Source: Escherichia coli (lineage in GTDB: Bacteria; Pseudomonadota; Gammaproteobacteria; Enterobacterales; Enterobacteriaceae). From it: DNA of 19,162 bases. Where the stretch lies: NCBI RefSeq assembly GCF_003334255.1, contig NZ_QOWU01000072.1. One strand, written 5' to 3'. The first letter of the stretch is position 1, and each line of letters begins with the position of its first letter. Both the position numbers and the translations under genes were made by a program. The notes beneath the pieces were generated by a model that saw only the letters and a list, made by a program, of their open reading frames with translations, ran no database searches and had not been told where the DNA came from. Positions 18,254 to 19,162 of the stretch are shown one piece after another.

Positions 18254-19085
18254 TTAACCTATCTCCTGTAACGCGTGTCTCTGGCGTTCGACGATATTGG
18301 TCCACAAATTGTCTTTATCGTCAGTCCATAAATTAATCAGCAAGGCAAAAAAGCGTTCTGCTGCTGGAGAAAGTACGGCATCTTTACGGCGAATTATTCC
18401 CAATGTTCGACGTATAACGGGTTCCACCAATGGGATACCAATAATCGAAGAATAGGGCGCATGAGGCATTGCCAGGCCAGGAAGCGCCGAAATCCCCAGT
18501 CCCGCCTCCACCAGTCCTAATGACGTCGAAAGATGACGCACTTCGTAAAACCAGTCCAGCTTCCAGGGCTTGTCGGCCAGCTGTTGTTCTATCAACAGTC
18601 GGTTGCCGCTGGAGGAGCGTACGCCAATCATTTTGTAACCCACTAACTCCTGCCATTCTACAAGCTGCTTTTTGGCCAATGGATGGTCACGCCGACAGGC
18701 CAGCACGAACGGCTCGTTGACCAGTGGGGTAAAATCAATGGATGAATTTGTGACGTTGTTCATGTTTATGCCAAAGTCTGATTCGTTACACAGCACCGAT
18801 TCCATGCAATTATTCGTGCCTTGTTCCAGAATCCGCACTTTAATATTGGGATACAGCTCATTAAATTTACCGATTGCCAGCGGTAAAAAATAAAATACTG
18901 CGGTCGGAATACACGCTAACGTCACCATACCACGATGATAAGCATTCATATCACGAATATTAAAAAGCGTTTCATCGAATTTCTTTATTAATTCCCGCGC
19001 CTCCGGGAGCAACCTTTTTCCTGCTTTTGTTAACGTAACCTTGCGAGTTGTACGCTCAAATAGTTGAATATGTAAATCTTCCTCC
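18254..19085 (-). pseudogene. ybhD: LysR-family transcriptional regulator, 5'-truncated by an IS1 insertion in the HTH-coding region
   Basis: Minus-strand ORF encoding ...EEDLHIQLFERTTRKVTLTKAGKRLLPEARELIKKFDETL... (end of a LysR HTH followed by a substrate-binding domain). The track's TTG start and first residues (L-A-A-S-P) are encoded by IS1 terminal-repeat sequence, not by ybhD; the native N-terminal roughly 40 codons are not contiguous with it. Confidence 0.85.
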
Positions 19086-19162
19086 GGTGATGCTGCCAAC
19101 TTACTGATTTAGTGTATGATGGTGTTTTTGAGGTGCTCCAGTGGCTTCTGTTTCTATCAGCT
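19086..19162 (+). mobile_element. insA: IS1 insertion sequence, left end (IRL and start of insA); continues beyond the window
   Basis: ggtgatgctgccaacttactgatttagtgtatgatggtgtttttgaggtgctccaGTGgcttctgtttctatcagct matches the canonical IS1 left terminal inverted repeat and the beginning of insA (GTG start at 19141, encoding MASVSIS...). Only 77 bp of the roughly 768-bp element is in the window. Confidence 0.9.

Follow-up and report, generated by a model that had tools for sequence, protein, structure and literature searches.

The window, the whole 19,162-nt stretch of DNA analysed here, ends in a piece of IS1 that adjoins ybhD, a gene encoding a poorly characterised LysR-type regulator. The question raised by this locus is whether IS1 simply split ybhD, so that the promoter and first codons of the gene persist beyond the element, or whether the far side of the insertion has been rearranged. 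The window covers the first 77 nt of IS1 and the left junction only; the body of the element and the far junction lie beyond position 19162. The evidence described below favours a simple IS1 insertion into ybhD, with a 9-bp target duplication, in the strain from which the window was derived; this reading was assigned a probability of about 0.75.

An IS1 left end adjoins ybhD

Positions 19086-19162 were compared with annotated elements, including the IS1A copy of strain E8, and were identical at 77/77 positions to the first 77 nt of IS1A and IS1B. The initial annotation had described the final 77 bp as a perfect IS1 left end running through the GTG start of insA, and this comparison bore that description out. 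Intact reference genomes diverged from the window at position 19086, confirming that positions 19086-19162 are not native ybhD sequence. Of 5,426 finished E. coli genomes, 4,963 contained the 77-nt end at 100% identity, and the median number of sites was 10 per genome.

The terminal inverted repeat of ~23 bp that is typical of the IS1 family was present at positions 19086-19108 and was identical to that of IS1A, and the insA frame, seven codons of which fall within the window, began ~55 nt inside the left end. The GTG at position 19141 corresponds to IS1 nt 56 and is also the CDS start in the PGAP annotation of the E8 IS1 transposase. The promoter-like site upstream of insA came from a scan in which the hit count in this region was at chance level; its position agrees with that of the IS1 promoter, which overlaps the left inverted repeat (IRL) in part. 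The window showed no visible differences from IS1A or IS1B in the IRL, the promoter-like site or the insA start, and its 77 nt are too few to assign the isoform. The complete IS1 body is 768 bp in length and comprises insA-insB', with a programmed -1 frameshift, and the right inverted repeat.

Table 1. Features of the window and mapped IS1 events at the ybhD-ybhH locus of finished genomes (events in extended window coordinates)
Feature or strain	Position	Strand	Remarks
ybhD 3' portion, 832 nt, third base of codon 41 to stop	18254..19085	-	identical to intact G1/2 ybhD
Chimeric 281-aa ORF	18254..19099	-	ORF list and frame check; mechanical ORF
Target site TCTTCCTCC, 9 bp	19077..19085	.	copy duplicated beyond IS1 in related assemblies
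IS1 partial element, cut by window end	19086..19162	+	77/77 identity to E8 IS1A
IS1 left terminal inverted repeat (IRL) GGTGATGCTGCCAACTTACTGAT	19086..19108	.	first 23 nt of annotated 768-bp E8 IS1
Promoter-like site CTGCCA-16-TATGAT, pointing into IS1, upstream of insA	19093..19120	+	consensus scan only
insA start, GTG + 6 codons + 1 nt, V/M-ASVSIS	19141..19162	+	translation VASVSIS
100416	18780		simple insertion, ybhD
2020S05-235	18913		simple insertion, ybhD
E8	18939		simple insertion, ybhD
UTME clone (UTME-9)	18960		simple insertion, ybhD
MB46	19110		simple insertion, ybhD
TUM9757	19127		simple insertion, ybhD
TW14425	~19242		simple insertion, intergenic
P276M	19363		simple insertion, intergenic
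Strain 81	~19545		simple insertion, ybhH
AVS0155	19679		simple insertion, ybhH
2018-11-3CC	19084 to 21661		deletion; opposite orientation; 1 nt from window site
MLI104K1	19021 to 20676		deletion
GDSC2227PM	19021 to 22116		deletion
14EC001	19134 to 22058		deletion
PSS-13	19164 to 21889		deletion
ET82	19185 to 22355		deletion
E41	19225 to ~24419		deletion
CE10/IAI39/N32 clade	19333 to 22302		deletion
RM14721	19418 to 21898		deletion

The break lies within the DNA-binding domain of YbhD

The ybhD gene was broken after nt 122 of its 954-nt coding sequence, in codon 41. Across this point intact genomes read ...AATCTTCCTCC followed directly by ATCTTTTTTATT; the window changes to GGTGATGCTGCC at position 19086. 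Pfam analysis of intact YbhD identified HTH_1 at residues 6-64 (E=5.8e-21) and LysR_substrate at residues 91-290 (E=3.6e-46), which is the architecture of a LysR-type regulator. Since HTH_1 spans residues 6-64, the break in codon 41 falls inside the DNA-binding domain, in agreement with the earlier placement of the junction within the helix-turn-helix region. The portion of ybhD that is present in the window encodes the HTH wing, the linker and the complete LysR substrate-binding domain.

On the minus strand the frame over the junction reads as a stop codon followed by ISKLAASPEEDLHIQLFER. The chimeric ORF in this frame starts at a TTG (position 19099) inside the IRL, passes through four IS1 or junction codons (AASP) and continues with YbhD residues 42-317; upstream, an in-frame TAA at positions 19109-19111, four codons from the TTG, closes the frame. 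The frame check agreed with the initial description of IS1-derived codons ahead of ybhD and of the nearby stop. Of HTH_1, the 281-aa ORF retained model positions 38-60 only, together with the full LysR_substrate domain at residues 55-254 (Pfam), and the exact 281-aa product was absent from ~15 billion public proteins, as determined by exact-sequence lookup. A consensus scan, the hit count of which was at chance level, found no outward promoter-like site in the IS1 end, so the caution originally expressed about expression of a truncated product was justified; the sole minus-strand hit in the same scan, with its chance-level count, was internal to ybhD (18963-18935).

Because a degenerate form of the junction pattern is expected to give 0 chance matches in the window, the IS1-ybhD junction is not a chance resemblance. 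IS1 prefers AT-rich target DNA and duplicates 8-10 bp of it on insertion, most often 9 bp; GC content was 28% over the 40 nt surrounding the insertion site.

Native context and ends of the window

The native 19,085 nt of the window were 100% identical over their full length to several finished chromosomes that carry an intact ybhD gene, including G1/2, G6/7, G8 and FORC_081. The gene order was tRNA-Lys, nadA, pnuC, zitB, ybgS, aroG, gpmA, galMKTE, modFE, acrZ, modABC, ybhA, pgl and ybhD; the ybhD gene was therefore downstream of pgl and, in the 100% identical annotated genomes, divergent from ybhH-ybhI. K-12 MG1655 carries an intact 954-nt ybhD gene and no IS1 at this locus, in agreement with the initial annotation. 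Over the last 4.2 kb, the sole difference between the window and MG1655 was at position 19069, which is T in the window (ybhD codon 47 ATT, I47) and C in K-12 (GTT, V47). The I47 allele, WP_000679972.1, is the widespread ybhD allele.

The first 78 nt of the window comprise a tRNA-Lys gene that is repeated at position 209 and has five copies in the cluster. Within positions 1-440, tRNA-Lys genes (1-73 and 209-281) were interleaved with RtT RNA repeats (8-175 and 315-440); this region forms the end of the lysT-valT-lysW... tRNA cluster that precedes nadA and is ordinary for E. coli. Rfam matches, to tRNA and RtT, were located at the start of the window only, with none near the IS1/ybhD junction. 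Since both ends overlap repeats by ~77 nt (tRNA-Lys and IS1), the window probably represents an entire short-read contig, of the kind produced by a de Bruijn assembler at k=77. Such a contig ends inside repeats, and therefore one of the two IS1 junctions is visible and adjacency past either end is lost.

De Bruijn contigs typically end inside repeats, as the window does (78 nt in tRNA-Lys, 77 nt in IS1), which raises the question of whether the junction is an assembly artefact, produced either by a chimeric contig end or by a subpopulation in the minority that was assembled as though fixed. Among Logan contigs sharing the haplotype, several (L050 is one) end exactly at position 19085 and have no IS1 bases, as would occur in mixed-allele samples. 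However, a 77-nt overlap into the repeat needs reads that span the junction, and the complementary junction, with the expected duplication, was present independently in several assemblies. An artefact is regarded as extremely improbable.

The complementary junction is present in related assemblies

When a 70-nt query across the junction was used, there was no single-piece full-length match in the 5,426 finished E. coli genomes, a result consistent with the earlier view that the event was probably strain-specific. Apparent 100% matches to the junction in finished genomes were rejected; in these genomes ybhD was joined to IS1 at other positions. A degenerate pattern covering both junctions, which was validated on the window and on four contigs (L006-L009), had 0 matches among JGI metagenome contigs. 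Since neither the finished genomes nor these metagenome contigs gave a match, the ybhD::IS1 event is rare and lineage-specific, and the junction, which a small number of draft and SRA assemblies contain, represents a precise lineage marker.

The orphan peptides encoded by the 5' end of ybhD were predicted for duplications of 7-11 bp, and each was looked up exactly in the ~15 billion public proteins. Only the peptide corresponding to a 9-bp duplication was found. This 50-aa fusion peptide, MKHELSS...RRIKKMEEE+VMTPTY (P0016), is WP_140411365.1, CUK12878.1 and CAM3126362.1; the peptides predicted for duplications of 7, 8, 10 and 11 bp were absent from the same proteins. The contigs that encode the 50-aa peptide read ...AAAAAGATGGAGGAAGA followed directly by GGTAATGACTCCAACTTATTGATAGTG.

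A simple insertion would give the far-junction string AAGTTGGAGTCATTACC-TCTTCCTCC-ATCTTTTTTATTC. In the L006-L009 contigs, read in the orientation of the window, IS1 ends in ...CATTACC and is followed by TCTTCCTCC and then by ATCTTTTTT. The TCTTCCTCC copy beside the IS1 right end in these related assemblies equals window positions 19077-19085. Past this junction were the ybhD 5' end, ybhH, ybhI, ybhJ, ybhC, ybhB and bioA. The initial annotation had predicted an IS1 right end, the duplicated target and the ybhD 5' end in this order, and that arrangement was recovered in independent public assemblies of the same haplotype.

Three of these contigs, a 39-kb NCBI contig (L006), a Logan contig from 13 samples (L007) and L009, had flanks with 0 SNPs compared to both K-12 and G1/2, an identity that is consistent with the window's lineage and not specific to it. 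The far junction with its 9-bp duplication was found in at least 15 samples of the window's haplotype, in draft and SRA assemblies, and the related contigs contained the last 29-120 nt of IS1 only. From these data we infer that the same far junction is present in the window's own strain. PGAP-style partial YbhD proteins beginning at codon 42 (P0033) were compared with those ending at codon 42/43 (P0019, P0024); there was no shared sample among the few places listed for them, and no assembly with both junctions was identified among these.

The fourth contig, L008 (Logan SRR17308685, 2894-2936), matched the prediction for the window in its insertion site, its orientation and its 9-bp duplication. 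Its flank was 2.4% divergent from K-12, and its IS1 right end carried the variant ATCAGTAAG instead of ATCAATAAG. L008 probably reflects a separate insertion event that hit the same nucleotide.

Many contigs of diverse haplotypes from draft, Logan and ENA assemblies (L047-L055 and L010-L029) stop at ybhD nt 122-131 and have no IS bases. They may derive from samples in which intact and interrupted alleles are mixed, the set having been selected by the query. A site-specific hotspot at ybhD nt 127-131 or 122-124, as judged from contig ends, was rejected because the query itself chose partial proteins of exactly that length, because many haplotypes were involved and most of the contigs had no IS bases, and because other fragment lengths were as common or commoner (30 aa, 145 contigs).

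Other IS1 events at the locus include far-side deletions

Finished genomes in which ybhD is joined to a nearby IS1 left end were mapped onto common coordinates, which gave 19 events (Table 1). Simple insertions with 8-10 bp duplications accounted for 10 of the 19. Strains E8, UTME-9, MB46, TUM9757, 100416 and 2020S05-235 resemble the window in having IS1 in the same gene, with duplications of 8-10 bp, but differ from it in the site, which in the window is position 19085; full 768-bp IS1 copies were seen at the locus in finished genomes, at positions other than 19085. In the enterotoxigenic strain ETEC H10407, IS1 is located in the ybhD/ybhH region in the opposite orientation. Natural IS1 interruptions of this type are called by PGAP as two ybhD pseudogene pieces around an IS1 transposase gene.

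In the remaining 9/19 events (L030, L033-L035, L037, L039, L040, L042 and L045, all in finished genomes) there was a far-side deletion, with the ybhD or intergenic flank joined via IS1 to ybhI, ybhJ or beyond. These nine deletions, of 1.6-5.2 kb, lie between extended coordinates 19021 and 24500 and remove ybhH, ybhI and sometimes ybhJ. Their frequency bears directly on the window, the left junction of which could be real while its far side is not the ybhD 5' end: IS1 may have caused an adjacent deletion or an inversion, by which the ybhD 5' end, its promoter and part of ybhH, ybhI or ybhJ would have been lost or moved. A deletion derivative keeps the left junction unchanged, and it is the left junction alone that the window shows; furthermore, the 2018-11-3CC deletion begins only 1 nt away. 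MLI104K1 and GDSC2227PM have a common left junction (19021) and different right ends, the classic signature of successive deletions spreading from one resident IS1 element. Adjacent deletion mediated by IS1, for which an abortive-transposition model was put forward, has been documented at nfsB (PMC10569738), where one breakpoint is fixed at the IS1 end and the other is variable, as was observed for the nine lineages at the ybhD locus. In contrast, the exact complementary junction with its 9-bp duplication was recovered from samples of the window's own haplotype, as described above, and the 5,426 finished genomes contained no deletion junction anchored at position 19085. A deletion or inversion on the far side is a serious alternative but is considered unlikely in the window's strain, and a simple insertion remains the preferred reading.

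The initial annotation was correct in stating that ybhD is split; its further statement that the element has only displaced the promoter and first ~40 codons is unproven for this strain, given the proportion of events with a far-side deletion. One IS junction, seen where a contig ends, is not proof that a gene has merely been split; about half of the comparable events at this locus hide a deletion.

The IS1 end could also belong to a larger unit, either a Tn9-like composite (IS1-cargo-IS1) or tandem or partial IS1 copies. The two junctions would then look identical to those of a single IS1, and short-read contigs cannot separate these cases. There is one precedent at the locus: RM14721 (L037, 2162-3010) has an 81-bp IS1 left-end (IRL) fragment followed directly by a full, divergent IS1 that is 91% identical; this tandem remnant, in which two different IS1 isoforms are represented, lies at the ybhH 5' end and is joined to the deletion reaching ybhJ. 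However, with the exception of that extra fragment, the mapped events in finished genomes all involved a single 768-bp IS1, and none of the data indicated cargo. A larger unit is very improbable.

Predicted consequences for ybhD and ybhH-ybhI

In the simple insertion that we propose, a K-12-like E. coli strain would have acquired a 768-bp IS1 in ybhD by transposition, between CDS nt 122 and 123, in the orientation in which the IRL and insA read toward the ybhD 5' end and ybhH, and the 9-bp target TCTTCCTCC would have been duplicated on insertion. Codons 1-41, which encode the first part of the winged helix-turn-helix, would be parted from the rest of the LysR-type regulator. The 5' piece of ybhD would end after six IS1-encoded codons, as a 50-aa peptide ...KKMEEEVMTPTY, and the 3' piece would have no promoter or credible start. 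The predicted outcome is a null ybhD allele and constitutive derepression of the divergent ybhH-ybhI genes.

Loss of YbhD function is what we infer for this strain, whether the event was a simple insertion or a deletion. When ybhD was deleted in BW25113, ybhH was "strongly upregulated"; ybhH and ybhI are listed as YbhD targets and a malate-dependent growth phenotype was reported (PMC9068703). Since deletion of ybhD in K-12 strongly raises ybhH expression, derepression of ybhH-ybhI is expected here if these genes are still present, and with an intact far side ybhH (a PrpF-family isomerase) and ybhI (a putative di/tricarboxylate transporter) would likely be expressed constitutively. If there were a far-side deletion, ybhD would still be null and the prediction of derepression would be void, because ybhH-ybhI would be gone.

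The predicted null allele has the loss of the YbhD regulator in common with the BW25113 deletion (PMC9068703). Unlike that deletion, the IS1 allele would leave an N-terminal peptide of 50 aa and a C-terminal fragment without a promoter, with a 768-bp element reading toward ybhH ~300 bp upstream of that gene. For this strain the event would amount to a null mutation in the gene for a LysR regulator that is still poorly characterised. It is a textbook IS1 insertional knockout in which both the element and the gene belong to known families, and it is of a kind already known: the fusion peptide has a RefSeq accession and IS1-split ybhD pseudogenes are routine in PGAP annotation.

IS1 recurs at the ybhD-ybhH locus

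Chimeric queries, each consisting of 424 nt of native sequence and the 77-nt IS1 left end, were constructed to the same design for ybhD and for three matched control regions of the window. The ybhD query identified 25 finished genomes with IS1 joined nearby, and the control queries, from upstream of ybgS/aroG (GC 0.456), modE-acrZ-modA (GC 0.481) and galE-modF (GC 0.482), identified 0 finished genomes. A mirror query, in which the IS1 right end was the abutting end, identified 18 further genomes, including ETEC H10407. With 25 genomes in one orientation and 18 in the other, IS1 is present at the locus without marked orientation bias. In total, ~43 of the 5,426 finished genomes had IS1 in or beside ybhD-ybhH, a modest but real population-genomic observation. 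Recurrence extended from 18780 to ~19680 in extended coordinates, through ybhD, the ybhD-ybhH intergenic region and the ybhH 5' end.

The ybhD 5' end and the intergenic region had the lowest GC content of the extended window (0.43). The recurrence of IS1 could result from the preference of the element for AT-rich targets, from tolerance of the loss of a dispensable module, or from selection. It is a tentative suggestion, and a doubtful one, that the recurrent insertions and deletions were selected through loss or derepression of the ybhH-ybhI(-ybhJ) module in some niches.

In one Logan contig (L020, SRR5247094, 1501-1629) ybhD codon 43 was changed from GAA to TAA, with the locus otherwise intact. 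This nonsense allele, which lies two codons from the IS1 site, indicates that ybhD has also been lost by point mutation.
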